Shown here: positions 24,927 through 59,436 of the stretch, in pieces
How positions within the stretch are numbered: position 1 is the stretch's first letter
Layout of the letters: each line of letters begins with the position of its first letter
DNA from: a virus
Lineage: Duplodnaviria > Caudoviricetes
Direction: 5' to 3' (one strand)
Virus record (IMG/VR): IMGVR_UViG_2767802080_000001
Coordinates: 25,770 to 89,769 of that record
DNA length: 64,000 bases
Made by a program: the position numbers and the translations under genes
The notes under the pieces: generated by a model
What the model was told of the DNA's origin: nothing
Databases searched by the model: none
What the model saw: the letters and a program-made list of their open reading frames with translations, nothing else

Positions 24927-25265
24927 ATGATCGGCCCAGCGGAGTTCGCCCTGCTCGCCGCCGCCAGCTACCGCGGCACGCAGCTCGTCGTCCACGACAG
25001 CATCCTCGACCCCCTCCGAGACCGCGTCGCCGCCTGGGAGGACCGCGCCGACAGCCGCGCCCGCACGGCGCTCCTGACCCTCATCTCCTGCATCTACTGC
25101 AGCGGCTGGTGGGTATCCGGCGCCGTCCTCGCCACCTGGCTTCTCGCCACCGGCCAGTGGCACGGCGTGGCCCCGGCCGTGCACGCCGTCGAGTGGTTCG
25201 CCGTCGCCGGGGTGCAGGCCCTCCTCAACCGCTGGGACGACAGCCGCGATACGGCGGAGTCCTGA
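24927..25265 (+). CDS. DUF1360-like membrane protein with CxxC
   Basis: YRGTQLVVHDSI..LR..LISCIYCSGWW. Confidence 0.75.
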   Translation: MIGPAEFALLAAASYRGTQLVVHDSILDPLRDRVAAWEDRADSRARTALLTLISCIYCSGWWVSGAVLATWLLATGQWHGVAPAVHAVEWFAVAGVQALLNRWDDSRDTAES

Positions 25266-27004
25266 TGGCCAACCTCACCGCCGCCGCCCAGCGCTTCATC
25301 GACCGCCGCCTCAGGCGCGGCAGGAACGCCACCCCGGACAAGGCGTGGCAGCTCGCCGCCTGGGGCTTCTACCGGCGCGTGCCCGAGGTGTACTTCTCCG
25401 CCGCCTACAACGGCCACGCCATGGCCCGCGCCCGCCTCTTCGCCGGACGCCGCGCCGACGACGGCACGATCGAACCGGCCCCCGACGACCACCCCGCCAC
25501 AGAGATCGTCTCTCAGATCGCGGGCGGCCCCGACGGACAGTCCAAGCTCCTCGGAGCGTTCGGCAAGCACCTCACCATCGCGGGCGAGGGCTGGGTCGTC
25601 GTCCGCCCCAACTCCGAGGTGAGAAACCCCGACGTCCCCGAGGACGGCCACGACTGGCTGACCCTGTCCGTCCGCGAGGTCGAGCAGCAGAACGGCAAGC
25701 TGTCCGTCCAGATCGACGGCGAAGACATCGAGATCCCCGCAGGCGACCCCGACACCCTCGACCCCCAGGCGCCCGTGGCGCTCCGCGTATGGACGGCCGA
25801 CCCCGAGCGCGCCATCGAGGCCGACAGCCCCGTCCGCTCCAGTCTCGGCCTCCTCGAAGAGCTGGAACTCCTGAACGCCGCCGTCAAGGCCATCGCCAGG
25901 AGCAGGCTCACGGGCCGCGGCATCCTCCTCGTCCCCAAGGGCGTGCGTTTCCCCACCAAGCCCGGCCAGTCAGACGCCGAGGACGACCTGATCGAGATGC
26001 TGATGACCGTCGCCGAGACGGCCATTCGCGAGCCCGACAGCGCCGCCGCCACCATCCCCATCGTCCTCGAAGTCCCGTCCGACTCGATCGCGAGCTTCAA
26101 GCTGATCACCTTCGAGTCCGAATTCGACGAGCTCGCGATCAAGCTCCGCGAGGAGGCGATCCGCCGCTACGCCACCGGCCTGGAGATGCCCGCCGAGATC
26201 CTCCTCGGCATGGGCGACATCAACCACTGGGGCGCGTGGCAGCTCACCGAGGAGGCGATCAGCCTCGGCATCGAGCCCAAGCTCGCCACGGTCGCCCACG
26301 CCCTCACCCTGCAGTGGCTGCGCCCCCTCCTCCAGGCCGAGCGCGTCCCCGACTGGCACCGGTGGCTCGTCTGGTACGACACCGCCCCCCTGCGCGTACG
26401 CAGCAACCGCAGCCAGGTCGCCCTGGAGACATGGGACCGGGGCCTGATCTCCGACACGGCGGCCCGGCGCGAGACCGGCTTCGACGACGCCGACGCCCCC
26501 GACACGCCCCCGAAGCGCCCGAAGGCACGCACCGAACCCCAGGACGACGACACCAGCACGCCGGAGGTGGACCTGCCCGTGGACGAGACGAACAGCGAAC
26601 CCGACACCCTGCCCGCATCCCTCGCCTACGCCCCGCCCATCGACCCGGCGCTCCTGGCCGCAGCGGACGGCCTGATCTGGGCCGCCCTGTCCGCCGCAGG
26701 GGAGAAGCTGCGCCGCACGCCGGCATGCCCGCGCTCCGAACGCGCCCGCGCCCGCGAGCTCCAGCCCGCGCAGCTCCACACGATCCTCATCATCGAGCAG
26801 GACGAGGTCGACCGGTGGCGTCTCCTCGACGGCGCATGGGCGCGCCTGCCCGAGGTCGCCGACCGCTACGGCGTCGACCCGGACTGTCTCACCGCAGCCC
26901 TGGACACCTACGCCCGGGAGCTCATCACCGCCGGGGTCGAGCACTCCTACGACCTGGTCCCCAGCGCCCTCCACCCCTGCACGGCCGCGCGGGAGGCCGC
27001 ATGA
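25265..27004 (+). CDS. Portal protein
   Basis: Position after terminase; ~579 aa; PAEILLG..NHW motif. Confidence 0.75.
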   Translation: MANLTAAAQRFIDRRLRRGRNATPDKAWQLAAWGFYRRVPEVYFSAAYNGHAMARARLFAGRRADDGTIEPAPDDHPATEIVSQIAGGPDGQSKLLGAFGKHLTIAGEGWVVVRPNSEVRNPDVPEDGHDWLTLSVREVEQQNGKLSVQIDGEDIEIPAGDPDTLDPQAPVALRVWTADPERAIEADSPVRSSLGLLEELELLNAAVKAIARSRLTGRGILLVPKGVRFPTKPGQSDAEDDLIEMLMTVAETAIREPDSAAATIPIVLEVPSDSIASFKLITFESEFDELAIKLREEAIRRYATGLEMPAEILLGMGDINHWGAWQLTEEAISLGIEPKLATVAHALTLQWLRPLLQAERVPDWHRWLVWYDTAPLRVRSNRSQVALETWDRGLISDTAARRETGFDDADAPDTPPKRPKARTEPQDDDTSTPEVDLPVDETNSEPDTLPASLAYAPPIDPALLAAADGLIWAALSAAGEKLRRTPACPRSERARARELQPAQLHTILIIEQDEVDRWRLLDGAWARLPEVADRYGVDPDCLTAALDTYARELITAGVEHSYDLVPSALHPCTAAREAA

Positions 27005-27204
27005 GCCGCCCCGATCCGCCCGACGACTTCACCGTGCAGATCGGCGGCGTGCGCGCCGAGTGGTGCGCCACATGCAAGGCGTGGACCAAGACCACCGGTG
27101 ACGCGCAGCTCCTCACCCCGGACGGCGTCACCGCCCTCGGCACCTGGGGCGTCTGCCAGATCTGCGAAGACCCCGAGGTTCGCCAGGAGGGACGACGTGC
27201 CTGA
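27001..27204 (+). CDS. Small Zn-ribbon protein
   Basis: CxxC..CxxC; translationally coupled. Confidence 0.6.
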   Translation: MSRPDPPDDFTVQIGGVRAEWCATCKAWTKTTGDAQLLTPDGVTALGTWGVCQICEDPEVRQEGRRA

Positions 27205-27397
27205 CAGTCGCCATCACGCCAGCCTCTGCACCGAGTGCGGCGGCCTCGTCGCTGTCGAGCTGCTGAGACTCCATCCCGCCAGCCTCACCCTCACTGCGGA
27301 GGACGGACAGGTGATCTCGTACGACAACCCGCGCGTCTACGTCGGCCCCGTCGTGAAGTGCACCGCCCGTCCCAGCGCCACCGGAGGCAGCCCGTGA
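27197..27397 (+). CDS. Small Cys-containing protein
   Basis: CTECGG; overlapping start/stop. Confidence 0.5.
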   Translation: MPDSRHHASLCTECGGLVAVELLRLHPASLTLTAEDGQVISYDNPRVYVGPVVKCTARPSATGGSP

Positions 27398-27798
27398 GCT
27401 GCTTCCCTGACGAGTACTACAGGGCCCTGTTCGCCGCCGCCGGGGACATCCCCGCCGAAATCCTCTTCAGCACGGACGACTCCAGCCACTGGGAGGCGTG
27501 GCGGCTCCCTCACGAGTCCCAGGCGCCCGGCACAGTACCGGCACCCAGGAGGGAAGCCCCCGTGCCCGACACCCCCGATGACGAAGAGCCCGCACCCGAG
27601 GGACCGCCCAAGGAGTACGTGGCACCGCCTGGCCACTCCCGCGCCGGGCACCGCGTGCACGGCTGGTGCTCGCGCTGCCCGGGCCGCGAAGTGTGGGAGG
27701 AGCTCCTCGCCTGGCGGCTGCGCGACAACGAGGCCAACGACGAGTCCCCGGCGCCCGACCGGGCACCGGCACCGAGCAGGGAGGCCGCTCGTGGCTGA
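27394..27798 (+). CDS. Hypothetical protein
   Basis: HGWCSRC motif; coupled to neighbours. Confidence 0.5.
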   Translation: MSCFPDEYYRALFAAAGDIPAEILFSTDDSSHWEAWRLPHESQAPGTVPAPRREAPVPDTPDDEEPAPEGPPKEYVAPPGHSRAGHRVHGWCSRCPGREVWEELLAWRLRDNEANDESPAPDRAPAPSREAARG

Positions 27799-30700
27799 CG
27801 ACCTGGAGGGCGCGCTCGCCGCCGCCGAGGAGGACGTCGCCGCCGAGGTGCGCGCGATCCTCGACGACGTCGCCGCCGAGTTCGCCGCCGAGCTGGCTGA
27901 CGCGACCGAGCTGGTGGCCGCACGCTTCTCCGTGTCCCGTATCGCCGGCATGTGGTCCCGCCACGTCCCCCGCCTGATGCGGCGTCTCTTCGGCGCGGGC
28001 GAGACTGCCGCGCGCACCGCTGCCGACAGCGTCGACGCGCAGCTGCCCGACGACTTCGAGGACCTCCCCGCCCGCTACGACGACGGCACCCTGCCCACCG
28101 GCCTCGGCGAGTACGCCGAGAGCACCGAGCACCTGCTGCGCGCTGTCGGGGACCGGCTCGCCGAGACCGCGGTCCGGGAGCTCGCGACCGGCCTCGACGC
28201 GGGCGAGGACATCGACGCCCTCCGCGCCCGCCTGCGCGCCGTCTTCGACGCAGAGGGCGCGCAGTTGGGGGAGACCCGGGAGGAGCGCATCGCGCGCACC
28301 GAGGCGGCCCGCGTGTGGAACGCCGCCACCCTCGCGGCGGCGGACGCGCTCGACGGCCTTGAGCGGCCCCTGGTGAAGCAGTGGGTCACCCGCCGCGACT
28401 CCCGCGTCCGTGACGCTCACGATGCCGTCGACGGCTTCGTGCGGCTCCTCGACGACACGTTCACCGTCGCCGGTGTCCCCATGGCCTACCCAGGCGACCC
28501 CACCGCCCCCGCCGCCCTCACCGTCAACTGCCGGTGCATCCTGCGACTTCAAACCGCCCACCGGGCTGCCGCCTTGGAATCTCAGGATCGCCTCGGGGGC
28601 GGACTTATCAAAGCGCGGCCCGCGGACGCCGAGCACACCGCGGCCGCCGACGGGAGCCACCGCAGCGGCGCCATGATCGCCCTCATGCCCACCGAGGACG
28701 ACGCCCGGCGCCTGGCCATCGAGGGCGGCGAGCCCGCCGAGGAGCTGCACCTCACCCTGTACTTCCTCGGCGAGGGCGCCGACTGGACCGAGGACCAGCG
28801 CAACGAGCTGATCGGGAACCTCCACGCGTCCGCCGCCGAACTCGGCGCACCGCTGCACGCCTTCGCCTTCGGAGCCGCCCACTGGAACCCCGCCAGCGAC
28901 ACCCCGTCGTGGGTGTGGAACGTCGGCGACGACCGCGACCGGCCGCTCGACACACCCACTCTGGCCTACGCCCACGCCCTCGCCACCTACGCGCTGGACA
29001 CCCACGAGCGGCCCGAGCTTCCCGTCCAGCACTCCCCGTGGGCGGCCCACGTCTGCGCCGCCTACAGCGACGACCCGGCCCTCCTGGGCGAACTCGTCGC
29101 CCGCACCGGCCCGATCACCTTCGACCGCCTGCGCGTGGCTTTCGCGGGCGAGCACACCGACATCCCCCTCGCGCCCCGGGAGGAGCCCATGCCCGACACC
29201 ACAGCGGCCGCCACACCGGTCCGCGCCTGGTCCACGCCCGACGAAACCGCCATCGCCTACGAAGACGAGGAGACCGGCGACGGCCGGATCTTCGCTCGGG
29301 ACAGCCTCTACTGGGACGCGCCCGGCCCCTGGCCCCTTCAGTACGCCGACGAGATGCTCATGGGCCACGAGGGCGCCGAGCTCGCCGGGCAGATCGACAC
29401 CATGGGCCGGGAGGGCGGCCGCATCCCCGCCACCGGCGTTCTCTACGCCACCCGGCCCGCCGGACAGGACGCGATCCACCTCCTCGAAGAGGGCGCTCCC
29501 CTGGGCGTCAGCGTCGACCTCGACGACGTCGACATGGAGGTCATCGACCGCACCAAGACCGACGACGACGGTGACGTGCTCGTCCTCGCCGCGTCGCTGC
29601 CCTCCGCCAGCGTGCTGCGCCTGGCCGACGGCGCGTACATGCTCTCGGCTGCCACGGCCGGGGAGTGGACCGCGGACGGCGGCACCCTCACCCGCGCTCG
29701 CCACAACGTCCAGCTCTTCACCGGCCCCGACGGCCGGATCAGCTCAGCCGCGTTCGCCGCCGCGTTCGCCGGGACGGGCGTCCTCACCGCGGCCGCCGGG
29801 GACCGCGACGACCCCGAGCAGGGCACGGTCGTCCACACCCAGCACGCCGGGGACGTCCTGATGAGGATCACCCGGGCGCGCGTGCGCGGCGCCACCCTCG
29901 TCGCCATGCCCGCCTACAGCAGGGCCCGCATCGTCCTCGACGCCGCCGAGGAGACCGCGGCCGCCGCCGCGCCACCCGCCCTGTCCGCGTCGGGCGACGA
30001 CCACGAGCGCGTCATCAGCTACGTGCGGACCTCGCCCGTCGCCGTCGGCGCCCGCGAGACGTCAGGCGCGGTCGGCATCGGCATGAACAGTGCCCGCGCC
30101 CACCTCGCCCGCGCGGCCAAGGCGGGCCGCCTGGTCCGCCTTGCCCCCGGCCTCTACGCCGGACCCTGCACCACCATGAGCGACGAGCAGCAAGCCGCCT
30201 GCCGGGGCCTGTCGGCCGCCGCGTCGGGTGACCTGGACCTGCCCGTCCACGAGGACCCTGATGCCGCCTGGGATGGCGACCAGGCCGCTTCCCGCATCCT
30301 CGCCTGGGCCACCGGCGAGGATGGCACGGTGGACGCGGACCGGCTCGGCGCCGCCTTCCTCTACCGCGACCCCGACAAGGACGCGACGACCCTCGCCGCC
30401 TACAAGCTGCCCTTCGCTGACCTCTTCCCGTCCGGGGACGGCGAGCGCCTGGAGGTCGTGGCCCGAGCCGTGTTCGCCGTCGCCGGGGTCCTGCAGGGCG
30501 CCATGGGCGGCGTCGACCTCCCCGAGGACGAGCGGGACAGCATCCGGGCCCGCGTCGAACAGCTCTATGCCCGGCTCGCTGAGGCGTACGACGACCCGTC
30601 GCTCACCGCCCCCTGGGACGACGGCCAGGACGATGACGATGAGGGCATGGCGGCCTCGCTCGCCGAGCTGGAGGCGTCGGCCTGGTCCGCGATGCGCGAC

Positions 30701-31627
30701 CTGCCCCCGATGCCCGCGCGCTGGTTCGCCGCACCGACTGCCGAGGAACTCCCGCCGGGATCAGGCGGCGTGCACTACAAGGACGGCCGCGTCTTCGGCT
30801 GGGTCGCCCAGGCCGGTGTTCCTCACGCGGGCTACCCGGGGAAGAACCTGACGATCGAGAAGCTGGTGAGGGAAGGGCTGGACACCACTCACTTCCTGCG
30901 GCAGAAGTTCGTCCTCGACGACGGCACCGCGGTTCGCGCGGGCGCCTTCACGATGAACGTGCCCCACCGGCGGGACGGCGCCGAGTGCGAGGACGCCGCC
31001 TGCCAGTTCGACGACACGCGCACCGTGGCCGGGGTCGTGACGTGCGGCCTGTCCGAGGGCGGCCTGTGGTTCACCGGTGCAGCCGCCCCGTGGCTGAGCG
31101 AGTGGGACATGCGTGTGTTCCTGGCCTGTCAGCCGTCCTACCACCTGATGCAGGCGGAACGCGGCAAGGGCTGGGAGCTGCGCGCCGTCCTGACCGTGCC
31201 GGTGCCCGGTCACTCGTCGGCCCTCGTGGCCGCCGCCGTCGACCGCGCGAACCTCGCCCTCGCAGCTTCTGCGGCCGCCGAGCAGGACGACGTCCGGACC
31301 GTGTCCGCAGACGCGTCCGTACTGAGTCCGGATGCTGTCCGGACGACATCCACGGCCACCCCCGGCATGGCCGATGAGCAGGGCGGACACAGTCCGGACG
31401 CGGAGTACGGACAGTTTCCGGACGCGCGTGAGGTAGCCGATGCGGTGGTCGCCGCGATGCTCACCGACGGCGAGTTCCTGGACTACCTGAGCGCCGCCCT
31501 GGAGGAACGGGAGGCGGCGCGCGCGGAGATGGACGCGGAGATCGAGCGCCTCGCCGCACAGATCGACCCCGACACACAGCACGTCGCCGCCGCGCTCGTC
31601 GGCGGCCCGGCAGAGGGAGGCCAGTGA
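27791..31627 (+). CDS. MuF-like minor head protein fused to 2H phosphoesterase and probable prohead protease/scaffold regions
   Basis: KQWVTRRDSRVRDAH..YPGDP..NCRC (MuF); HLTL and HVC (2H); ETGDGRIF..GVSVDLDD..GATLVAMPAY (protease-like). Confidence 0.8.
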   Translation: MADDLEGALAAAEEDVAAEVRAILDDVAAEFAAELADATELVAARFSVSRIAGMWSRHVPRLMRRLFGAGETAARTAADSVDAQLPDDFEDLPARYDDGTLPTGLGEYAESTEHLLRAVGDRLAETAVRELATGLDAGEDIDALRARLRAVFDAEGAQLGETREERIARTEAARVWNAATLAAADALDGLERPLVKQWVTRRDSRVRDAHDAVDGFVRLLDDTFTVAGVPMAYPGDPTAPAALTVNCRCILRLQTAHRAAALESQDRLGGGLIKARPADAEHTAAADGSHRSGAMIALMPTEDDARRLAIEGGEPAEELHLTLYFLGEGADWTEDQRNELIGNLHASAAELGAPLHAFAFGAAHWNPASDTPSWVWNVGDDRDRPLDTPTLAYAHALATYALDTHERPELPVQHSPWAAHVCAAYSDDPALLGELVARTGPITFDRLRVAFAGEHTDIPLAPREEPMPDTTAAATPVRAWSTPDETAIAYEDEETGDGRIFARDSLYWDAPGPWPLQYADEMLMGHEGAELAGQIDTMGREGGRIPATGVLYATRPAGQDAIHLLEEGAPLGVSVDLDDVDMEVIDRTKTDDDGDVLVLAASLPSASVLRLADGAYMLSAATAGEWTADGGTLTRARHNVQLFTGPDGRISSAAFAAAFAGTGVLTAAAGDRDDPEQGTVVHTQHAGDVLMRITRARVRGATLVAMPAYSRARIVLDAAEETAAAAAPPALSASGDDHERVISYVRTSPVAVGARETSGAVGIGMNSARAHLARAAKAGRLVRLAPGLYAGPCTTMSDEQQAACRGLSAAASGDLDLPVHEDPDAAWDGDQAASRILAWATGEDGTVDADRLGAAFLYRDPDKDATTLAAYKLPFADLFPSGDGERLEVVARAVFAVAGVLQGAMGGVDLPEDERDSIRARVEQLYARLAEAYDDPSLTAPWDDGQDDDDEGMAASLAELEASAWSAMRDLPPMPARWFAAPTAEELPPGSGGVHYKDGRVFGWVAQAGVPHAGYPGKNLTIEKLVREGLDTTHFLRQKFVLDDGTAVRAGAFTMNVPHRRDGAECEDAACQFDDTRTVAGVVTCGLSEGGLWFTGAAAPWLSEWDMRVFLACQPSYHLMQAERGKGWELRAVLTVPVPGHSSALVAAAVDRANLALAASAAAEQDDVRTVSADASVLSPDAVRTTSTATPGMADEQGGHSPDAEYGQFPDAREVADAVVAAMLTDGEFLDYLSAALEEREAARAEMDAEIERLAAQIDPDTQHVAAALVGGPAEGGQ

Positions 31628-31824: not shown

Positions 31825-31876
31825 CGGCCGGTACCCTGTCCGATGCTCCGTCCCGCCGCAGGTCAACGCGGCGGGC

Positions 31877-31912
31877 TAACATCATCTCGACGCCGCTGGT
31901 TCTGGGCCGGGC
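31877..31912 (+). promoter_or_regulatory. Late-gene element copy 1 (TAACAT + GCCGCTGGTTCTGGGCCGGGC)
   Basis: Upstream of major capsid gene. Confidence 0.8.
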
Positions 31913-31941
31913 CTCCACGTACACCGCCTGGAGACCCGCTC

Positions 31942-33633
31942 ATGACCGAGCCGAACGAGAGCACCGAGCACACCGAGTTCACCGTCCCCGAGGACTTCAG
32001 CGGCCTCCGCAACGAGCAGCTCGACGAACTCCTCACCACCGCCCGCGCCGAGTTCGGCACCCTGCGCGCCCAGACCTCCATCACGGACGGCGACCTGGAG
32101 CGCATGCGCTCCCTCGCCGCCGGTGTCCAGCGCATCCAGGTGGAGCAGGAGACCCGCGTCAGCGCCGCTCGCGAAGCGGCCGCTGAAATCGACTCCCTGG
32201 CCGCACAGGTCAACGGGGAGGAGGCGAACGCCCCGGAAGACGACGGCGCCAGCGGCGGCGAGGAGGAGGCCGCCGAGGTCACCGCAGCCGCCCCGGACGA
32301 CGCCAGTACCGCCGCCGGTGAAGGCGATGCCAGGCCGGAGAGCGCCACGGCGGCGGCCGCGCCCTCGCGCACCTATGACCTGTCCATGGTCCGTCAGCGG
32401 CAGCCGCGTGTCCTCCCGCCCGAGCGCACCGTTGCCATCCCGCGGATCACCGCAGCTGTCGACGTCCCGGGCTACCGCGCCGGGGACGACATGACGCTCC
32501 AGGACCTGGTCCCGGGCACCATCCGCCGGGCCTCCTCGATCGTGAAGTCCGGGCACAAGTCGGGCCTGGTGGCGTCGTACCACCATCCGTTCCCCGAGGA
32601 ACTGGTCGTCAACGACCCCGGCTCGGCGCCGGAGGGCTCCACCGTCGCCCTCCACGCCGCGCAGCAGGCCCGCCTGCCCAAGGGCGACCTCGTCGCCTCG
32701 GGCGGCTGGTGCGCCCCCTCCGAGACGCTGTACACCTTCCTGGAGGTGTCCTGCCCCGACATGCTCTGGGACGCCCCCGAGATCCAGCTCGCCCGTGGTG
32801 GCCTCAGGTACTTCAAGACGCCGTCCCTCGACGTCGCCGCGATGACGTGGGTGCACACCGAGGCCGACGACATCGCCGGGAACGAGAAGCCCTGCTACAA
32901 GATCCCGTGTGAGGAGCCGATCGAGTCCCGCTGTGACGCCGTCGGCATCTGTGTCGAGGCCGGCATCCTCACCCAGCGGCACTTCCCGGAGCTCGTCAGC
33001 TTCTACCTGAACCTGACGATGGTGGCCCACGAGATCCGCGTGAGGCAGCACCTCCTCGCGCAGGTCGCCGCCTCCGCCACCCCCGTGGTCATGCCGACGA
33101 CCTTCGGCGCGCTCTCCGCCGTCTTCGACGCCGTCGCCCTCCAGGCCGCCGACATGATCGAGCGCCACAGCCTGTGCGACAACATCGCCCTCGAGGTGGT
33201 CTTCCCCTGGTGGTCGCGCAATCTCTTCCTGGCGGACCTGGCGCGCCGTAACGGCGTCAGGGTCGACGAGGTCACCGTCGCCGACGTACAGGCCCTCTTC
33301 ACCCCGCTCGGCGTCCGCATCCAGTGGGCGCGCGGCATCGGCCCTGCGGTGCCCGGCGACATCGGCGGCCAGACCCCCGTCACCGCCTGGCCCACCGAGA
33401 TCGAGTTCCTCATCTACCCGGCAGGCCAGATCCAGATCGGCCGCGGCGCCGAGGTCAGCCTGGGCGTCGTCCACAGCCCGGAGCTGTTCCGGACCAACGA
33501 CTACACCGCGGCGTTCTCGGAGGAATGCGTCACGATCATCGACCGGTCCGTGGACACCCGCCTCGTCACCGTCCCCGTCTGCCCGAGCGGCGAGACCGGC
33601 GCGCAGACCCTCCTCACCTGCGCCGCCTCCTGA
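31942..33633 (+). CDS. Major capsid protein with N-terminal scaffold-like region
   Basis: 563 aa; coiled-coil/acidic N-terminus, LVASGGWCAPSE motif; followed by a strong hairpin. Confidence 0.8.
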   Translation: MTEPNESTEHTEFTVPEDFSGLRNEQLDELLTTARAEFGTLRAQTSITDGDLERMRSLAAGVQRIQVEQETRVSAAREAAAEIDSLAAQVNGEEANAPEDDGASGGEEEAAEVTAAAPDDASTAAGEGDARPESATAAAAPSRTYDLSMVRQRQPRVLPPERTVAIPRITAAVDVPGYRAGDDMTLQDLVPGTIRRASSIVKSGHKSGLVASYHHPFPEELVVNDPGSAPEGSTVALHAAQQARLPKGDLVASGGWCAPSETLYTFLEVSCPDMLWDAPEIQLARGGLRYFKTPSLDVAAMTWVHTEADDIAGNEKPCYKIPCEEPIESRCDAVGICVEAGILTQRHFPELVSFYLNLTMVAHEIRVRQHLLAQVAASATPVVMPTTFGALSAVFDAVALQAADMIERHSLCDNIALEVVFPWWSRNLFLADLARRNGVRVDEVTVADVQALFTPLGVRIQWARGIGPAVPGDIGGQTPVTAWPTEIEFLIYPAGQIQIGRGAEVSLGVVHSPELFRTNDYTAAFSEECVTIIDRSVDTRLVTVPVCPSGETGAQTLLTCAAS

Positions 33634-33710: not shown

Positions 33711-34544
33711 ATGCCAAGCGTCGGACTCCGCCGCTACGTCGAGGCCGTCCCCGGCGACCCGCTGCCCCACGGCCTCCTCGGCGGCTGCACGCAGATCATC
33801 GACGTCACCGACCCCCACGAACTCCTCGGCACCGAGTGGCGGCCCCTGTCCTGCGCGGACGCCCACACCACCACGTGGTGCCCCGGCGGCGACGAATCGC
33901 CCGGCCTGCCCGCGGAGAAGACGTTCGACCGGCCCGGGTTCTGCACGGCGCCGCCCATCACCGTCTACGCGGGCGCCGAGTGTTCCACCATCGGCTGGTC
34001 GTACGACGAGGCCGTGGAGCACGCGCGCGAGACGCTGCGCATGGGCGAGCAGCGCGCCCTCGAAGAGTGGCTGATGAGCGAAGTCCTGTGCTCCATCGGC
34101 GACGACCTCACCCCGGCCGCGGGCGCCGTGTCCATCTCACAGGGTGTGGGCGCGCTGGAGAACTGGCTTGGCACCGAGTACGGCGGCCGCGGCGTGCTCC
34201 ACATCCCCGTGGGCGCTGGCGCCCTGCTGGGCTGCTGCAACATCGTGCACCTGGTCGACGGCACCCCCGAGACCCTCGCGGGCAACTGCGTTGTCCTGGG
34301 CGCCGGATACGCCGTCAACGTCGGCCCACCCGACTGCACCGTGGCCGAGCCGGGCGAGACCTGGCTGTACGCGACGAGCCCCGTCCGCGTACGCCGCGAG
34401 GCCGTCGCACAGGTGCCGGACAGCGACGCGCAGAGCGTGCTCACGCGCACTAACGACCGCCTGGCCCTGGCCGAGCGCACCTTCGTCGTCGAGATCGCGT
34501 GCTGCCGGGCCGCCGCCATCCGCGTCCGGATCTGCCCGGAATGA
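33711..34544 (+). CDS. Cys-rich head-associated structural protein
   Basis: 277 aa directly after capsid gene; GAGG RBS. Confidence 0.7.
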   Translation: MPSVGLRRYVEAVPGDPLPHGLLGGCTQIIDVTDPHELLGTEWRPLSCADAHTTTWCPGGDESPGLPAEKTFDRPGFCTAPPITVYAGAECSTIGWSYDEAVEHARETLRMGEQRALEEWLMSEVLCSIGDDLTPAAGAVSISQGVGALENWLGTEYGGRGVLHIPVGAGALLGCCNIVHLVDGTPETLAGNCVVLGAGYAVNVGPPDCTVAEPGETWLYATSPVRVRREAVAQVPDSDAQSVLTRTNDRLALAERTFVVEIACCRAAAIRVRICPE

Positions 34545-51500: not shown

Positions 51501-52880
51501 CGCGCCGCATCGGTCCTGGGGGCGCTCCCCGGCCGGGTGTCGGAGCTGTTCAACCGGGCCCGGTCCGCAGCCGTGTCCGCGGTCCGGGATCTGCTCGGTG
51601 CCGTCCTCGACCTCCTGCGGAGCCTGCCGGGCCGGGCGGCGTCCGCCCTGTCCGGGGCCGCCTCGGCGCTCGTCGGCGCGGGGCGTGACCTCATCCAGGG
51701 CATGATCGGCGGCATCAAGTCGGTGGCTGGCAGCCTGGCCTCAGCCGCAAAGGATGTCGTGAGCGGTGCCATCAGCGGGGCGAAGAGCGTGCTGGGCATC
51801 AGCAGCCCCTCGAAGGTCTTCGCGGAGATCGGCCGGGACACCGGCCTCGGCTTCATCAAGGGCCTGACGGGGACGGCCTCGGAGATCGAGCAGACCACCA
51901 AGAAGCTCGCCGACGCCATCACCCGCGCGTTCCGGGGCCGCAAGACGACCGTGGACGACCGGCTCGTCAGCCTCCTGGAGAGCGGCAACCGGCGGCTCCA
52001 GCGCCTGGCGTCGCAACGTGAGGCACTGCTCAAGAAGATCGCGGACGCGCAGAAGTTCGCGGCGGACACCACGGCCGCGGCTCTCCAGTCCGGTGCGCTG
52101 CAGAACTTCGCACGCGACGGCCAGGTGAACGCGGACAACATCATCGACGGCCTGCGCAACGCCGTCTCCCAGATCGAGGGCTTCACCCGCCGCGTCAACG
52201 CACTCGCGCGCCGCGGTGTCCGTAAGGACTTGCTCCGGCAGATCATCGGCCTCGGCCCCGAGCAGGGCGACGCCTTCGCGCGCGCCCTGGCCTCCGCCGA
52301 CAAGCGCACCCTCCAGCGCATCAACAGCCTCCAGGGCGACCTCGCCGAGGCGTCGACCCGTCTCGGCCGCCGCAGTGCCGACATTCTCTTCGATGCCGGC
52401 AAGGAGGCCGGGCGCGGGTTCCTTGAGGGTCTGAAGGGGCAGCGGGAGCAGATCGAGGACCTCATGCTCGACATCGCCCGCGGGATCCAGCGGGCGATTC
52501 GCGGGGCGCTGCGCATCAAGTCGCCGTCGAGAGTGTTCGCCGACATCGGTGACCAGACCGGTGCGGGCCTGGAGCAAGGACTGCTGCGCCGCGTCGCCGT
52601 GCTTGAGGAGGCGCTGCGCGGCGCCGCCCGGGGCCTGGCCGACACGGTGGCGGGGGAACTCGTGCGCAGCCCTGCAGTGAGCGGGCTGGCCGCCACGCCT
52701 CAGGCCTCGCTGGTACGCACGCCCACGAGCACGCAGGTGCCGGGGCCGACGGCGAGCAGCGACCGCCAGAAGGCGAGGCCGCAGGAGGTCACCAACACCT
52801 TCTACATCACGGAGGTTGGCGACGCCCGGACGACCGCGCATCAGGTCGTGACGCGCCTGACCCTCGCGTCAGGGATCTGA
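48519..52880 (+). CDS. Tape measure protein
   Basis: 1453 aa, Ala/Leu-rich amphipathic repeats, two I.SPS.VF motifs. Confidence 0.9.
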   Translation: MAEEEDYGTGRVRIVLDDSAVDGEARAIGRRIQRSLERATRNLGQQLRRNITRALRGDFSVRVSPDTADFRTRLASQLRELEAVAVPVVPDLDRFESDLVTGLRGLGAVEVPVLPDLDRFESALRAELQGFGDVEVPVVPDFDRFESALALGLLGLGSVEVPVVPDLDRFEVALRAGLPDLRSVEVPVVPDLDRFESALLVGLRGLGEIEVRVVPNLDRFESALLVGLRGLGEIEVRVVPNLDRFDSALLAGLRSLDSIDVPVVPDLEGFVERLRAALAGVELSVRVVPDLDGFDARIRAHRPPDVTVNVNPNVDANRLTRSLSRVKSVAGGVVKALGGLLAFGAVGIAAANAAAGVGAFIAAVTPAAGIVAAFPAAILTTVAAMGALKLALSGVSEAFSAALTGSAKAFEKSLEGLSPKARAAARELRGLKPAFEDLRNSVQDSFFGKIEGQITDLASALGGPLEKGLSKIAANFGTAAARVGNFLQSARGVAAVKNILTGTEEATKGLAAALRPVVGGFVRVAGSVSEAFGEQLGSKIEDVGKRLGRFLENAAKSGRAVAAVGAAVGVFRQLGAIISNVRSIISGVFEAGEQAGAGFLARLEKITQKFDKFVNSDRGQKTLGNLFATVGTIAAQLGPILAALLTQIGAIAPALAPIFTALGPALTNLINALGPALASIAPALATVGTVLADAFEELASGDVLTAVGAVIGRLLTGLAPLLPLVGALANTVLAALAPAFQAVLEVLNPVIATLVGALMPVLPQLTTALQSILKAVIPLGTALGEALGTAIVGLGPLLLILAQAIAQVVAALVPFVTALVDALIPVLPPLVTAFQAVVDAVIPLVPPLAELLASLAPLAVLIVKIAAPLLQAAAALTGWLVIEGVVPLIEGIVSALTGLAKVLTFIVTAVTSFVQLIIDGFQFLFDTLVGGSIVPDLVNAIVTLFTNLPLLILSAISGLVSTVVGVFRSLASAALSVVSSAVSNVVRFFSQLPGRAASVLGALPGRVSELFNRARSAAVSAVRDLLGAVLDLLRSLPGRAASALSGAASALVGAGRDLIQGMIGGIKSVAGSLASAAKDVVSGAISGAKSVLGISSPSKVFAEIGRDTGLGFIKGLTGTASEIEQTTKKLADAITRAFRGRKTTVDDRLVSLLESGNRRLQRLASQREALLKKIADAQKFAADTTAAALQSGALQNFARDGQVNADNIIDGLRNAVSQIEGFTRRVNALARRGVRKDLLRQIIGLGPEQGDAFARALASADKRTLQRINSLQGDLAEASTRLGRRSADILFDAGKEAGRGFLEGLKGQREQIEDLMLDIARGIQRAIRGALRIKSPSRVFADIGDQTGAGLEQGLLRRVAVLEEALRGAARGLADTVAGELVRSPAVSGLAATPQASLVRTPTSTQVPGPTASSDRQKARPQEVTNTFYITEVGDARTTAHQVVTRLTLASGI
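48690..49450 (+). repeat. 75-bp (25-aa) tandem repeat in tape measure gene
   Basis: GACCGTTTC recurs at 48795, 48870, 48945, 49020, 49095, 49170, 49245. Confidence 0.9.
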
Positions 52881-53161: not shown

Positions 53162-53232
53162 ACGTCCAGGATGCCCGACTGGCGGTGGGTGTCGCAGGGG
53201 ATTGGCCGACGGCCGCAGCGGGCGGCGCCTCC

Positions 53233-53268
53233 TAGACTGGCCGGTGCGCCGCTGGTTGTGGGCCGGGC
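53233..53268 (+). promoter_or_regulatory. Late-gene element copy 5 (TAGACT + motif)
   Basis: Upstream of distal tail gene. Confidence 0.8.
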
Positions 53269-53296
53269 CGCCAACGCTGTTGCGGGAGGTGGCCTC

Positions 53297-54733
53297 TTGG
53301 CGCTCTTGGACTACATCACGCTGGGCGGCGTCGAGATCGCGAACGCGGCCCGGCTCGCGGCCTACCTGGACGCGGAGTCGGTTGGCTCGCCGCTGAGCAG
53401 CTTCACGCCCTGCTCCTGCCCCACGATCACGGCGGAGTCCCTGGGCGACCTGCCGTACACCACGCCCGCCGAGGACGAGGCGCCCTGGTACGACCCCGAC
53501 CTGCCCGTGAGCGAGGACTTCGCGGGCCTGCTGGTCCTGTCCATCGAGGGCCTCGACGAGTACCCGGTGCGGCGGGCGGTGACGAACGCGGTCACGGGCG
53601 GCGGCGTCCTGGGCCCGGCACGTGTTCTGCCGCGCACCATGGTCGTGACCGGCATCCTCCTGGGCCGGACCTGCTGCGGCGTCGAGTACGGCCTGCACTG
53701 GCTCTCCGAAGCCCTCCAGGGCTGCGCGGGCAACGAGTGTGACGGCGACTGCATGGAACTCCTCTCGTGCTGCCCGGACGAGGAGCTCAGCGAGGAGTGT
53801 CTGAACGAGGCGCACCGGCGCACGCTGCGTCGTGTCGCGCTCGTCGACGGGCCGCGTGTCGTCTCCCGCGCGGGCGACGGCTGTTCGGCGGGGGAGTGCG
53901 CGGCGAGCGGTGCCGATGTCGTCACCGTCGAGTTCACCCTCGTCGCGGCCACGCCGTGGCTGTGGACGGACCCGGTGCCGTTGATCGAGGTCGCGCCGCC
54001 GCTCGATGACAGCACCGAGTGCGTGACCTGGTGCCTGGACGGCGGCACCGAAGACCCCACCCTGTGCCTCGAGCTCACCGAGACCTGCCCGCCCGGCTCG
54101 TTCGGGGTGGAGGAGACCACGGAGGCCTGCGACCTGGCGTGGCCGGTGAACGAGGACGACGGGCCCTGTGACGGCACCTGTCGCCTCGCCGCGTGCGCGG
54201 ACCCCACGGCGCTGTGCCCGGACCCGCTCTGCAAGACGCCGACGCCACCGACAGTGGAGGCGCCTCAGGAGACGTGCTTCTGCCTGCCGCTGGCCGTGGA
54301 GCGCCGGTGCTGTGACGTCGACCTGTCCGCCTGCCCGGCCTGGGCCGTCGACGTGCCGATCATCATCGTCCGCGCGGGCAGCAAGGACCTGCGCAACCTC
54401 ACGATCACCTTCTTCGAGCGCTCGCCGAACCACGAGGACATGACGTGTGAGGAGATCGCCGACGCGGAGCGCTGCAACACGGTGGCGGTCTTCCACATCG
54501 CGTACGTGCCCGCGGGCGGGGCGCTCACCCTGGACGGCCAGACGGGCCGCCCGATCGTCGAGTGCGGCGGCGTCTGCGAGTCGAGCCCCGACGTGTACGG
54601 CCTCGACGGAGGCCCGCTCAAGTTCCCGACGCTGACCTGCGCCAGCTACGTGATCTGCATGGAGTCCGACCTCCTGCACCCCCCGTCCGGCGACGCGGTG
54701 GTCACGGTCAGCGTCACGGGCCGCGGCTTCTGA
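53297..54733 (+). CDS. Cys-rich distal/minor tail protein
   Basis: TTG after GGAGG; follows tape measure; about 33 Cys. Confidence 0.75.
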   Translation: MALLDYITLGGVEIANAARLAAYLDAESVGSPLSSFTPCSCPTITAESLGDLPYTTPAEDEAPWYDPDLPVSEDFAGLLVLSIEGLDEYPVRRAVTNAVTGGGVLGPARVLPRTMVVTGILLGRTCCGVEYGLHWLSEALQGCAGNECDGDCMELLSCCPDEELSEECLNEAHRRTLRRVALVDGPRVVSRAGDGCSAGECAASGADVVTVEFTLVAATPWLWTDPVPLIEVAPPLDDSTECVTWCLDGGTEDPTLCLELTETCPPGSFGVEETTEACDLAWPVNEDDGPCDGTCRLAACADPTALCPDPLCKTPTPPTVEAPQETCFCLPLAVERRCCDVDLSACPAWAVDVPIIIVRAGSKDLRNLTITFFERSPNHEDMTCEEIADAERCNTVAVFHIAYVPAGGALTLDGQTGRPIVECGGVCESSPDVYGLDGGPLKFPTLTCASYVICMESDLLHPPSGDAVVTVSVTGRGF

Positions 54734-54811: not shown

Positions 54812-55858
54812 GTGGCTGTAGCCGGATGCGGGACACACTCCTGCCGGATCGTGGACCGTGACGGCGCCACGGTCAGCAACGCCGACGTCCTCACGTCGGT
54901 GGAGTGGAGCCGCGTCCTGGACGACACCTCGGCGGCGAGCGTGGTCGTGTCCCCGGAGGGCGACTGCTGCGAGCGCCTCGGCCTGGTCCGCGCCTGGCGC
55001 CACAGCCTGCTGATCTACCGCGACGACAGCGCGCCGGTGTGGAGCGGGCCCGTCGTCGACGTCCGATGGCATCTGGGGCGCGTGGAGATCTCGGCGCTGG
55101 ACGTGTCGGCGTGGCTGGCCCGGCGCGTGCCGCACGAGACGATCGCGTTCACCAACACCGACCTGGCCGAGATCGCCGACTGGCTGATCACGGACGCGTT
55201 CGCCCCCGACGACCCCGGGCACAGCATCGTGACCGTGGCGCCCACGCGCGTACGCGGCGCCCGCAACTACACCAAGAACGTGGGCCAGGCCCTCGACCAC
55301 CTCACCGACCTCGCCGACACCGGCCTCGACTGGACCGTCCTCGGCCGGACCTTCCTTCTCCTCCCCGAGACCCACCGGGAGAGCGTGGGCAGGCTCAGCG
55401 ACGTCGACTTCCCCGAGGGCCTGGTCGTCGCCGAGGACGGCACCGCGCTCACGACCCGCTGGATTGTGGCCGGTGACGAGGAGGGCGAGGTCCTCGGCGA
55501 AGCGGGCGGCGTGCACCCCTACTACGGGCTGCTGGAGCGCTACTTCGAGCAGACCTCCATCCCGGACGACGCGTCGGCCACCGCGGCCGCCGAGGCCAAG
55601 CTCCGCGCGAGTCAGCCGGTGCCGGTCTTCATCGACTCCCAGCAGGTGACGATCAGCCCCCAGGCGGCGGTCGACGTCGCCCACCTGGTGCCCGGCTGGT
55701 GCCTGGACGTCACCAGCGCCGAGACCTGCCGCACCGTGTCGCAGCGGCTGAAGATCACGGGGGTGACCGTGACCGAGGAGGGCGGCAGCGGCGACGACCC
55801 GGGCAGCGAGAGCGTCCAGGTCCAGGTAGCGGCCACGGGAACGGAGGCGAGCAGCTGA
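54812..55858 (+). CDS. Minor tail / baseplate hub-like protein
   Basis: WSRVLDD..VWSGPV; position after distal tail. Confidence 0.7.
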   Translation: MAVAGCGTHSCRIVDRDGATVSNADVLTSVEWSRVLDDTSAASVVVSPEGDCCERLGLVRAWRHSLLIYRDDSAPVWSGPVVDVRWHLGRVEISALDVSAWLARRVPHETIAFTNTDLAEIADWLITDAFAPDDPGHSIVTVAPTRVRGARNYTKNVGQALDHLTDLADTGLDWTVLGRTFLLLPETHRESVGRLSDVDFPEGLVVAEDGTALTTRWIVAGDEEGEVLGEAGGVHPYYGLLERYFEQTSIPDDASATAAAEAKLRASQPVPVFIDSQQVTISPQAAVDVAHLVPGWCLDVTSAETCRTVSQRLKITGVTVTEEGGSGDDPGSESVQVQVAATGTEASS

Positions 55859-57490: not shown

Positions 57491-57526
57491 TAGACTCGGG
57501 GCGCTGCCGCTGGTTCTGGGCCGGGC
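57491..57526 (+). promoter_or_regulatory. Late-gene element copy 8 (TAGACT + motif)
   Basis: Intergenic. Confidence 0.8.
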
Positions 57527-57552
57527 GATCCACCCATCAAGGGGAGGACGCC

Positions 57553-58533
57553 GTGGCCAGGTGCGGATGCGGCGGGGGCAGTTGCAACTGCTCCATCGAG
57601 GCCGGAGAGAACGTCACCGTCGATGGCAGCGGAACCATCGCGAACCCGTATGTGATCTCCGCCGGGGACCCCGACTGTTCCGTGGTCCGCCCCTGTATCT
57701 CCGCCGGGGACGGCGCCTCGTACAACTCCGGCACCGGTGTCGTGACTGCCCGCCTGTCCGGGGACGCCGGGAACCTGATGGAGTTCGGCGCCGACGGCGG
57801 ACTGTACGTCGAAACCGACTGCCCTACCGTCCGGCAGTGCTTCAGCGCGGGCGACGGCGCCGAATACGACGCGTCCACAGGCGTGTTCTCGGCGCGACTG
57901 TCGACGGACGCTGGGAACAACATCATCTTCGGCGGAGACAGCGGCCTCTACGTGCCAACCGGGGCAGCGACGGTGAGCGTGGACTGCGGCCTCACCGGCA
58001 ACGGCTCGGCGGGCAACCCGCTCACGGCCGCCGTCGGCACCTGGCCCTACCCCTGCAACCTGGACGCCGAGGCCGGACAGGTCTACTGCGACAGCACCGG
58101 GGTACTGCGCGGCGAGCCCCGGCCGGTCGCCGCATTCCAGCAGAACCAGCAGATCCTCAACCCCGCCAACCTGGCGGTCCCCGCAGCGCAGGACACCGAG
58201 GTTGCGACCCACACCCTGAACATCCTGAACCCCGACTCCTGCCGCGACGCCTTCGTGATGCTCGAGGCGGAGGTGGACGCGGACTTCGACCTTCCCTCAG
58301 GCAACAGCAGTGCCGCCCTTGGCATCACGACGGACGAGATGTCGTTCGTCTTCAACAAGGGCGCCACGGCAGCCCTCGACGTCCATATCCAGGGCACCAA
58401 GGTGATCAACCAGACCATTCCAGCAGGCGGCAACCTCAACTTCGTCCTCTCCATCACCATGGGCCGCGGCAGCGGTGGCGCTACCTACAACCGCATCCAG
58501 TCCTTCCTCCGCGCGTTCGTCTTCGTCCTGTAA
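57553..58533 (+). CDS. Tail fibre-like protein with internal duplication
   Basis: Starts MARCGCGGGSCNC; duplicated DC..VR.C.SAGDGA.Y..ARLS.DAGN..FG.D.GLYV. Confidence 0.75.
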   Translation: MARCGCGGGSCNCSIEAGENVTVDGSGTIANPYVISAGDPDCSVVRPCISAGDGASYNSGTGVVTARLSGDAGNLMEFGADGGLYVETDCPTVRQCFSAGDGAEYDASTGVFSARLSTDAGNNIIFGGDSGLYVPTGAATVSVDCGLTGNGSAGNPLTAAVGTWPYPCNLDAEAGQVYCDSTGVLRGEPRPVAAFQQNQQILNPANLAVPAAQDTEVATHTLNILNPDSCRDAFVMLEAEVDADFDLPSGNSSAALGITTDEMSFVFNKGATAALDVHIQGTKVINQTIPAGGNLNFVLSITMGRGSGGATYNRIQSFLRAFVFVL

Positions 58534-58544
58534 GGGGCCCGATC

Positions 58545-58841
58545 GTGGAATCAGCAACGGTGTACTACCGGCGCGCCGACGGCGTACTGGTTGAACAGAC
58601 CGCCTCAGACGGCGCCCTGCCTGAACTCCCCGAGGGCGCGGCCCGGCTGACGGCTAAGGAGTACAAGGGGGCGCTGAAGGAGGTGGAGGCTGCGCGCAGG
58701 GAGCACGCCGCCGCGCTCACTGCCCAGGACGAGGAGCGGGCCCGCGGCGACTACGAGGCGCTGCGGGCCGCCGGCATTCCGGAGGGCACCGCGCGGCGCC
58801 TGACCGGCTACGCAGGGGCGGACGGAGAGGGCGATGGCTGA
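58545..58841 (+). CDS. Small tail-associated protein
   Basis: 98 aa after fibre gene. Confidence 0.6.
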   Translation: MESATVYYRRADGVLVEQTASDGALPELPEGAARLTAKEYKGALKEVEAARREHAAALTAQDEERARGDYEALRAAGIPEGTARRLTGYAGADGEGDG

Positions 58842-58856
58842 TCGGCCCGGGGGACG

Positions 58857-58893
58857 TACACTCACTCGCCACGCCGCTGGTTGTGGGCCGGGC
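58857..58893 (+). promoter_or_regulatory. Late-gene element copy 9 (TACACT + motif)
   Basis: Upstream of lysis-proximal genes. Confidence 0.8.
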
Positions 58894-58920
58894 TGACGAA
58901 CTTCCCCCAGGGGAGGGGCC

Positions 58921-59436
58921 TTGACCATGTGCGGCTGCATCCATCCTGGTGTGCTGGTGTGCTCCCTCAAGCGGGACATCCCGCAGGAGATCGAGCCCGG
59001 CGGGTATCACATCGTCCGCTTCCCCTTCAGCGATGACGAGTCGTACGACGCGCACGCCATGCACCAGTCCATCCAGCCCGACGCCTTCGTGATCAATGAC
59101 GACGGATGGGATGACGACGACCGGTCGGGCCTGATCTGGCCGACCCGGTCAGGGTGGGGCACCCTGCACGCCCTGATTCAGTGGGGGAGCCCGGCGGCCA
59201 CGGCGACCGAGTACCGGGACCAGTTCGTACGTGACCCCCTGGGGCTGTTCGCTCCTCCCGACACCACGGCGACCGACCACCGGGCGCCGAGTCCGGGCGG
59301 GCAGTACTGGAGCAAGACGCACGGGATCTTCGTGCATCCGGGCGTGCCCCTGGCGCTGCGCGTCGCGCACAACGCGCCGATCCCGCTGGCCCTCACGCTC
59401 GCCGAGTTCAAGCTCGCGATCCACCCGGCCGCCTGA
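58921..59436 (+). CDS. Hypothetical protein
   Basis: 171 aa; GGGGAGG RBS. Confidence 0.65.
   Translation: MTMCGCIHPGVLVCSLKRDIPQEIEPGGYHIVRFPFSDDESYDAHAMHQSIQPDAFVINDDGWDDDDRSGLIWPTRSGWGTLHALIQWGSPAATATEYRDQFVRDPLGLFAPPDTTATDHRAPSPGGQYWSKTHGIFVHPGVPLALRVAHNAPIPLALTLAEFKLAIHPAA

Follow-up and report, generated by a model that had tools for sequence, protein, structure and literature searches.

The question raised by this locus is why the outer proteins of a tailed-phage virion are so rich in cysteine (Cys), what those Cys residues are joined to, and whether the phage encodes the means of joining them. The window analyzed is the whole stretch of 64,000 nucleotides at positions 25,770 to 89,769 of the IMG/VR virus record IMGVR_UViG_2767802080_000001, which corresponds to positions 59,574-123,573 of a 207,886-bp contig in the 10.2-Mb assembly of a Streptomyces-like genome. 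An original prediction, made from the nucleotide sequence and its open reading frames (ORFs), had proposed a virion shell crosslinked by disulfides or stapled by metal, possibly with a phage-encoded thiol oxidase. Gene content and Cys patterns indicate that the window very probably holds the virion module of a large siphophage whose outer proteins are joined by disulfides, within and between subunits, into one covalent network. The lineage is that of phages with separate hexon and penton capsid proteins, which includes mycobacteriophage cluster B, prophi_GD43-6 and the Mycobacterium abscessus phage Jabs, Woodruffvirus, and TurkishDelight.

In the proposed arrangement, Cys residues of the hexon, penton, head-to-tail adaptor, tail terminator, tail tube and distal tail protein (Dit), and probably of the fibres, would form intra- and inter-subunit disulfides, and capsid, connector, tube and tail tip would be joined in a single covalent network. 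The transient, internal or ejected proteins (portal, MuF-protease, chaperone, tape measure) would carry few Cys or none. The bonds presumably do form in this phage, and they would do so on meeting oxidising conditions at or after lysis, with no dedicated enzyme.

Genes were assigned with Pfam and PHROG profile scans, synteny, and BLAST against Mycobacterium phage prophi_GD43-6 (MW584174; GD43-6 below), which is also a tblastn match of the window Dit. Start codons were picked by position and ribosome-binding sites. The genes of the module are as follows, with lengths in amino acids (aa).

24927-25265, + strand: DUF1360 / phrog_781 small membrane protein with a CxxC motif (C55, C58); Pfam PF07098 at E 1.6e-8 and 34.9 bits against a cut-off of 21, phrog_781 at E 3e-23; directly upstream of the portal gene.
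25265-27004, + strand: portal, 579 aa, 3 Cys; phrog_776 at E 1e-166, 28% identity to the GD43-6 portal at E 1e-48.
27578-31627, + strand: MuF-like / capsid maturation protease fusion, 1349 aa, 12 Cys, start codon uncertain; Pfam Phage_Mu_F at E 1e-12, synteny with TurkishDelight gp15 and Xkcd426 gp12.
31843-33633, + strand: major capsid protein of hexons (MCPh), 596 aa, 10 Cys; phrog_777 at E 4e-160, 33% identity to the GD43-6 major capsid protein (gp58) at E 2e-46.
33711-34544, + strand: penton capsid protein (MCPp), 277 aa, 13 Cys; phrog_779 at E 5e-71, GD43-6 gp59 at E 9e-14.
44292-44996, + strand: major tail (tube) protein (MTP), 234 aa, 12 Cys; phrog_792 at E 2e-84, 34% identity to the GD43-6 MTP at E 4e-29.
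45715-46515, + strand: head-to-tail adaptor, 266 aa, 17 Cys; phrog_783 at E 2e-83, 32% identity to the GD43-6 adaptor at E 3e-31.
46515-47099, + strand: tail terminator, 194 aa, 16 Cys; phrog_810 at E 5e-34.
47807-48244, + strand: tail assembly chaperone, 145 aa, 0 Cys; precedes the tape measure, phrog_12617.
48519-52880, + strand: tape measure, 1453 aa, 0 Cys; assigned by size, position and synteny.
53297-54733, + strand: Dit, 478 aa, 33 Cys; phrog_838 at E 4e-104, GD43-6 Dit at E 3e-20.
54812-55858, + strand: Tal-like minor tail protein, 348 aa, 6 Cys; phrog_837 at E 4e-81, 26% identity to GD43-6 gp71 (345 aa, the length of the Jabs Tal) at E 7e-10.
57553-58533, + strand: putative fibre / receptor-binding protein, 326 aa, 12 Cys, four of them within the first 13 residues; no family match.

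The GC content is 69-75% across the window. In high-GC DNA long open stretches also occur in wrong frames, and a one-base shift turns CTG followed by C into TGC, and the Cys richness could in principle be a wrong-frame artefact of 72% GC DNA or a compositional quirk of no structural meaning. This explanation was rejected and has next to no probability. A single + strand coding frame runs over 24.9-59.4 kb, in agreement with the genes of the original prediction, with a third-codon-position GC of 0.85-0.94. Strong PHROG or BLAST matches were obtained in the chosen frames for all the proteins concerned, and Cys positions are kept in homologues down to 28-40% identity.

The host background, taken over 4976 confident ORFs no shorter than 150 aa, is 0.796% Cys; the 99.9th percentile lies at 4.1%. 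The frame that holds Dit, 53171-54733, is the most Cys-rich of all 4976 ORFs in the genome. The original counts for Dit, adaptor and terminator proved exact (33 Cys in 478 aa, 17 in 266 and 16 in 194), with binomial probabilities against the host background of 1.7e-20, 8.9e-11 and 7e-12; for the tail tube and the penton protein the value is 5e-7. The capsid, tube and fibres had also been called Cys-rich. This holds for the tube (12/234), the penton protein (13/277) and the putative fibre (12/326), while the excess in the hexon protein is mild (10/596, ca. twice background, P 0.023). The tape measure and chaperone are Cys-free as described: 0 Cys in 1453 aa has a probability of 9e-6, and 0 in 145 aa one of 0.31, which makes the absence from the chaperone uninformative. 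Pooled, the outer-shell proteins have 152 Cys in 3973 residues (3.8%), and the portal, MuF-protease, tape measure, chaperone and two small proteins have 15 in 3709 (0.40%).

Elsewhere in the same genome, two further Cys-rich ORFs lie on contig C30 at 11935-14917, one of 389 aa that has 16 Cys, the other of 265 aa that has 13. By tblastn they are unrelated to the structural proteins of the window.

The most Cys-rich protein has the fold expected of its position. Its AlphaFold2 model (pLDDT 87) shows the belt and galectin-like domains of a Dit, with the gene right after the tape measure, and Foldseek matched it at probability 1.00 to the Douge baseplate (8zdo, E 4.5e-8), SPP1 Dit gp19.1 (2x8k, E 1.4e-7), TP901-1 (4v96) and 80alpha (6v8i). 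Residues ca. 240-333 form a loop-like insertion with no regular secondary structure and low model confidence, which holds about half of the Cys of the protein. Sequence searches with Dit, MCPh and MTP against the Protein Data Bank gave no matches at E up to 1.

What such Cys residues do is known from Jabs, whose virion was solved by cryo-electron microscopy (cryo-EM) in a July 2026 preprint (bioRxiv 10.64898/2026.07.24.740622). Of its ca. 1,700 disulfides, which join capsid, connector, tube and tail tip, the capsid accounts for 955 and the tube for 660. The capsid is T=9, with an MCPh of 594 aa and an MCPp of 257 aa, and the N-terminal Cys of ORF61 and ORF62 are disulfide-linked to an insertion in Dit (10.64898/2026.07.24.740622). 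GD43-6 was used as the stand-in for Jabs. Protein lengths of 257, 180, 478 and 345 aa are identical between the two, and the hexon protein has 593 aa against 594. At the bonded positions listed in the available text of the preprint, GD43-6 has Cys at 13 of 13 in Dit, 4 of 4 in MTP, the one in MCPp (C97), the one in the terminator (C93) and, after a one-residue shift, 4 of 4 in MCPh.

The window and GD43-6 have PHROG families 776, 777, 779, 781, 783, 792, 810, 837 and 838 in common, and their DUF1360 proteins match at E 1e-5. In GD43-6, gp52 belongs to phrog_781, gp59 to phrog_779 (E 4e-93) and gp65 to phrog_810 (E 8e-66). The 277-aa protein is identified as the penton capsid protein because it falls in phrog_779 like gp59 (257 aa, with C97 as in the Jabs MCPp), and the 194-aa protein as the tail terminator because it falls in phrog_810 like gp65 (180 aa, with C93 as in the Jabs terminator). 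The window thus has the adjoining hexon and penton genes of a module with two capsid proteins. Its hexon residues C290 and C356 align with Jabs MCPh C271 and C347, and MCPp C91 aligns with C97, so that the Cys of the bonds from hexon to hexon and from penton to hexon are present. In the tube, the counterparts of Jabs C19, C60 and C131 are C20, C61 and C131, and the inter-ring pair C19-C131 is kept.

Several putative tail-tip or fibre proteins (starting at 54812, 56613, 57553, 58927 and 38893) have clusters of Cys in their first 20 residues, given the start codons chosen here – C4, C6, C11 and C13, or C5, C7 and C20, for example. By likeness to the N-terminal Cys of Jabs ORF61 and ORF62, the 326-aa protein may be anchored to Dit, which depends on the choice of start codon.

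The Jabs pairs were followed through an alignment of nine phages, including the window phage, TurkishDelight, Xkcd426, Squash, Wilde and GD43-6. Both Cys of the hexon-hexon pair (MCPh C271 and C347) are present in eight of the nine and both are absent in one, Wilde. For the intra-hexon pair (MCPh C281 and C563), both are present in five and both are absent in four, including the window phage. The presence of MCPp C97 matches that of its partner MCPh C271 in all nine. As far as this alignment goes, the pairs seen experimentally in Jabs behave as evolutionary units.

The window proteins have many Cys beyond those of Jabs, and for these the close relatives are informative. Relatives were gathered from 20 loci in bacterial genomes and 80 in IMG/VR. 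Streptomyces genomes often hold them: 228 homologues of the DUF1360 protein were found, nearly all in Streptomyces, with the 20 genome loci and 116 confirmed IMG/VR stretches. Many of these contigs measure 83-118 kb; one homologue carries a plasmid annotation, and complete chromosomes hold some of the copies. The family, made up of large temperate phages or phage-plasmids, is widespread. No second related prophage was found in the genome that holds the window.

Among 60-94 distinct homologues, the mean conservation of the window Cys is 0.79-0.98, against 0.51-0.61 for other residues. Cys counts are stable: 8-12 in the tube, 14-19 in the adaptor, 10-18 in the terminator and mostly 24-33 in Dit. 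They also keep their parity (rows not deduplicated), with an even count in 65/68 tube proteins and 73/75 terminators and an odd count in 66/77 adaptors. Covariation was assessed on trees built without the Cys columns, with changes mapped to branches and their coincidence reported raw. Tube C25 and C231, 213 alignment columns apart, changed on the same branches five times each, and 60 of 60 sequences agree. Same-branch changes, three each, were found for terminator C41 and C123, terminator C188 and C190, Dit C127 and C158, Dit C242 and C329, and Dit C196 and C291, as well as for an adaptor column pair (E159 and T166) that is not Cys in the window. Lost Cys give way mostly to A, V, T, S, G and P, and seldom to His. 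Across ca. 100 relatives the extra Cys are, by these alignments, conserved by position, changing in steps of two, and gained or lost as pairs.

A different fate for the Cys would be coordination of zinc or an iron-sulfur cluster by a substantial share of them, giving the metal-stapled virion that the original prediction had allowed for. The adaptor motif CxCxxxCxC (C95, C97, C101, C103) fits this idea, being Cys in all 21 homologues of one alignment, and tail tip proteins of the lambda gpL type carry an iron-sulfur cluster. Residues 68-102 of the Jabs adaptor, the matching stretch, have no interpretable density in the cryo-EM map (10.64898/2026.07.24.740622). Wilde lacks C95, C97 and C101 in the wider nine-phage alignment. 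The GD43-6 residue matching C103 is Val. With no variation among the 21 sequences, covariation is hardly informative on this cluster. Four terminator Cys are jointly missing in two Woodruffvirus sequences, as a metal site might be, but with more sequences they split into two independent pairs, present in 62/73 and 58/73. Variable Cys change in twos rather than fours, His is scarce in the Cys-rich proteins (2 in 266, 2 in 194 and 5 in 478 residues), neither His nor Asp often replaces Cys in tube and adaptor, and classical paired CxxC knuckles are rare. The resolved homologous Cys of Jabs are disulfides, and zinc or metal is not mentioned in the available text of that preprint. Disulfides are favoured over four-Cys metal sites because of the loss in twos, the scarcity of His and the Jabs precedent. 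Metal as the general explanation is improbable, and the proposal of a metal-stapled shell survives as a possibility for the one adaptor cluster.

The disulfide-linked shell, in turn, is well supported because the Cys are conserved by position, change in steps of two, are gained and lost in pairs, are replaced by residues other than His, and include those kept from Jabs. Conservation and pairing of the Cys positions had been named in the original prediction as a check, and both were found among the relatives; homology to a Jabs-type virion through GD43-6 adds to the case for the crosslinked shell proposed there. Such a shell is already a known kind, with Jabs as the published relative, and the window phage would be a more extreme member.

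Several observations weigh against this reading. The disulfides of the window phage are predicted from its genes, and the link to Jabs is indirect, passing through GD43-6 at 26-34% identity to the window. The covarying pairs rest on one to five inferred events each, too few for an independent-pairs sign test to reach significance. Dit parity is even in only 63/99, and the odd Cys counts (33, 17 and 13) leave unpaired or inter-subunit Cys unaccounted for. Some Jabs pairs are incomplete or missing: tube C61 has no Jabs partner, with F80 where Jabs has C79, and the intra-hexon pair C281-C563 is absent, with L300 and S569 in its place, likewise in TurkishDelight, Xkcd426 and Squash (C304 and C562 lie nearby, unaligned). 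The mapping of Dit Cys onto Jabs, at 28% identity, is tentative and appears to conflict in part with the covariation within the family – C448 covaries with C143, yet its counterpart in the alignment, Jabs C454, pairs with C388. The adaptor cluster C95-C103 matches the unresolved Jabs stretch and could bind metal. The actinobacterial cytoplasm is reducing. The timing of oxidation is left open in the Jabs preprint (10.64898/2026.07.24.740622).

The tape measure is the counterpart of the Cys-rich shell. It has no Cys in the window, TurkishDelight, Xkcd426, Salete, GD43-6, Shotgun, Megan, Squash and Wilde (0/1581), and one Cys in 1954 aa in CloverMinnie. It is Cys-free in 11 of 11 full-length homologues; in another table, 3 of 23 loci have two Cys each, and the C-terminal parts from 20 relatives have one Cys in ca. 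8,000 aa. Since the Cys-poor phage Wilde also has none, the Cys-free tape measure is lineage-wide and independent of the Cys richness of the shell. The original prediction that the ejected tape measure stays uncrosslinked was right in that the protein is Cys-free; the trait is no special adaptation of Cys-rich virions. In the public record of Wilde, gp25 (17174-18157) and gp31 (the 1581-aa tape measure by position) are both labelled "major tail protein", and gp25 matches endolysin PHROGs at E 2e-104; both labels are probably mis-annotations.

How the bonds would form remains to be considered, and here the first gene of the module enters. A DUF1360-like membrane protein with CIYC had been described at the head of the operon, and this holds: the protein matches Pfam DUF1360 and reads C55-I-Y-C58. 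Its gene belongs to the core of the module. Both Cys are invariant in 60 of 60 close homologues, along with ca. 20 other invariant, mostly polar residues, and W61 and W62 are invariant or nearly so; the family motif CxxC-x3-W stands at the start of the second hydrophobic helix. The AlphaFold2 model (pLDDT 92) has five helices, ca. three of them hydrophobic. The positive-inside rule would place the charged loop that precedes the CxxC in the cytoplasm, and the CxxC itself at that end of the second hydrophobic helix which faces the cytoplasm. There are two Cys in all in the window protein and four in the GD43-6 homologue.

The protein could be a membrane thiol oxidase or redox relay that makes the virion disulfides from the cytoplasmic face, before or during lysis. 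The invariant CxxC with its ca. 20 companions and the cytoplasmic placement predicted for the preceding loop would suit such a role. The motif is retained in distant homologues in phages of Mycobacterium, Gordonia, Microbacterium and Arthrobacter. In most of the relatives with gene tables that were read, the gene immediately precedes the portal; in Xkcd426, Salete, Shotgun, Squash and prophi_GD43-6 it lies one or two short genes or a 0.2-kb gap upstream. In every sampled phage that has the gene, Wilde included, the core Jabs disulfide pairs at least are kept. Spontaneous formation of the bonds at lysis and catalysis by a host or phage oxidoreductase are both left open by the Jabs authors (10.64898/2026.07.24.740622), who do not mention this gene in the available text.

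Structure and gene content give this role little help. The protein lacks the two essential Cys pairs of DsbB or VKOR type, having one pair, and it has no recognisable quinone or flavin site. A Foldseek search with the model gave a best E of 2.1, with neither DsbB nor VKOR among the matches shown. The VIA fold search gave a best Z of 7.1, which is noise level for helical bundles, with neither in the top 50, and all that the Atlas search gave were DUF1360 clusters and look-alikes without a name. No thioredoxin or glutaredoxin match was found on the contig. Erv1 (Evr1_Alr) gave no match in 49 window ORFs, and none in the genome in a search whose sensitivity is unproven as the control genomes also gave none. 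Among the scanned upstream ORFs the only redox gene is a PAPS-reductase-like protein, described with the neighbouring genes below.

Disulfide networks also occur in other phage lineages. Recombinant siphovirus tail tubes with engineered Cys gain inter-ring disulfides with no helper, and so oxidise without a protein of this kind, and their thermostability is raised. In the phage Pam3, virion parts are disulfide-linked and dithiothreitol leads to loss of fibres or to contraction. Milano reportedly has disulfide-linked virion parts as well, and the terms cytoplasm, oxidizing, oxidoreductase, reducing environment and after lysis are all missing from its paper, which in such words is silent on bond formation. 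The engineered tubes, Pam3 and Milano are precedents for the formation of such bonds without a dedicated phage enzyme.

The distribution of the gene was the other line of evidence. A first comparison set the presence of PF07098 against the Cys percentage of Dit in 20 phages; the family matched 16 of 20 at E up to 0.01 and 14 of 20 above its cut-off, with no match in MellowYellow and a weak one in SPI1. This comparison proved misleading. Pfam missed phrog_781 proteins that have the CxxC-x3-W motif and are encoded ahead of the portal gene in Wilde (gp16), Squash (gp23) and CloverMinnie (gp9), and Dit as the sole measure under-reports Cys richness, as in Shotgun and Megan, where Dit is Cys-poor and the adaptors have 14 Cys. 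A tblastn search with the DUF1360 protein found only 19 phage records and was too insensitive for this purpose.

A phrog_781 protein with CxxC is present in every relative whose pre-portal region was read, whatever its Cys load. Wilde carries it, yet its hexon, penton, tube, adaptor and terminator have 2, 0, 2, 2 and 2 Cys, against 10, 13, 12, 17 and 16 in the window. The gene therefore does not track Cys content, the outcome that the original prediction had itself named as speaking against its proposal. The two hexon and two tube Cys of Wilde are exactly the Jabs pairs C281-C563 and C60-C79, so that at least a minimal disulfide set accompanies the gene in each phage sampled. The co-occurrence reflects co-inheritance in one lineage and is not independent evidence. 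On sequence distribution alone, a link to oxidation is neither confirmed nor excluded, and the phage-encoded oxidase of the original prediction – a core gene of the lineage, with one Cys pair and no DsbB or VKOR fold match – comes out neither supported nor refuted.

Taken together, the oxidase or relay role is improbable. It is slightly less probable still that phrog_781 is a new class of small membrane thiol-disulfide oxidoreductase, a phage counterpart of the cytoplasmic disulfide pathway of poxviruses. If it were, phrog_781 would answer the question left open by the Jabs authors, and the strongest dependence on it would be in the Streptomyces branch, where five of the virion proteins have 5-8% Cys.

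The remaining genes between the portal and the tail tip are as follows.

34559-35071: 170-aa protein between the penton and the 1254-aa protein; around C145 and C148 it weakly resembles a C2H2 zinc finger, with a score under the Pfam cut-off.
35074-38838, + strand: 1254-aa Cys-rich protein, 33 Cys, a candidate virion protein only; weak FN3-like Pfam match, phrog_18824.
42204-42857: DXD glycosyltransferase.
42854-44272: FkbM methyltransferase.
44996-45715: weak Stealth-like protein, phrog_7999.
48097-48462: overlapping open frame, likely a frameshift extension of the chaperone.

The sugar-modification genes inside the structural operon, in the interval between capsid and tail genes, together with an upstream DegT/EryC1 aminotransferase (14439-15533), suggest glycosylated virions. 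Just before the terminase (21145-22815) are a PAPS-reductase-like protein with DUF3440 (17456-18862) and a weak RepB/ParB-like protein (20703-21176). Pairs of PAPS-reductase-like and ParB-like proteins are common near phage packaging genes, and PAPS-reductase-like proteins of this kind usually have to do with DNA modification. The - strand upstream of the packaging genes encodes an LPD29 domain protein, a PP2C-like phosphatase and a weak integrase-like ORF (6381-7310, 8056-8868 and 10836-11654).

If the shell is linked as proposed, the disulfide architecture of the whole virion, described for one M. abscessus phage, would be a deep trait of a large actinophage lineage, carried furthest in Streptomyces phages and prophages. 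The named Cys pairs are testable predictions, and phrog_781 is the only phage-encoded candidate for how the bonds might form in a reducing cytoplasm. Practical relevance is modest: the robustness and redox sensitivity of particles, and design rules for covalently stabilised protein tubes and cages.

Compared with known redox systems, the DUF1360 protein resembles DsbB and VKOR only in having a CxxC at a membrane boundary. Those proteins are four-helix bundles with two Cys pairs, while DUF1360 has ca. three membrane helices and one pair, with no fold match. The Erv1/ALR and poxvirus E10R pathway has no parallel by Pfam in the window ORFs scanned, with no match to Evr1_Alr, thioredoxin or glutaredoxin.

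Pam3, Milano and the engineered tubes (gp39) are like the proposed virion in being virions or tail tubes held by inter-subunit disulfides. Their protein families are unrelated to those of the window, and their hosts are Gram-negative or cyanobacterial. Two of these three systems are contractile-tailed, with bonds proposed to gate contraction, and Pam3 and gp39 have far fewer Cys per protein.

The nearest sequenced phages are TurkishDelight (NC_073473) and the Woodruffvirus phages Xkcd426 and Salete, with the same gene order, 72-75% nucleotide identity in patches and 43-68% protein identity. The same proteins are Cys-rich in these three: 29, 26 and 24 Cys in Dit, 15 each in the adaptor, and 16, 12 and 12 in the terminator, with 0 in the tape measure. 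A literature search on cysteine or disulfides in Streptomyces phage capsids found no paper on the Cys content or disulfides of these three. They are free isolates of 57-94 kb, while the window copy lies in a bacterial assembly.

The closest comparison in structure is with Jabs and GD43-6. The window has the same gene order – DUF1360-like protein, portal, MuF-protease, hexon protein, penton protein, tube, adaptor, terminator, chaperones, tape measure, Dit and Tal – and the same Cys-free tape measure. Its proteins are only 26-34% identical to those of GD43-6, its host is Streptomyces-like, and its disulfides are predicted from genes rather than seen in a particle as in Jabs. Unlike Jabs and GD43-6, it has glycosylation genes and the 1254-aa Cys-rich protein inserted between the capsid and tail genes. 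It also has more Cys than GD43-6 in each protein compared: 12 against 6 in the tube, 17 against 10 in the adaptor, 16 against 4 in the terminator, 33 against 15 in Dit, 13 against 1 in the penton protein and 10 against 6 in the hexon protein.

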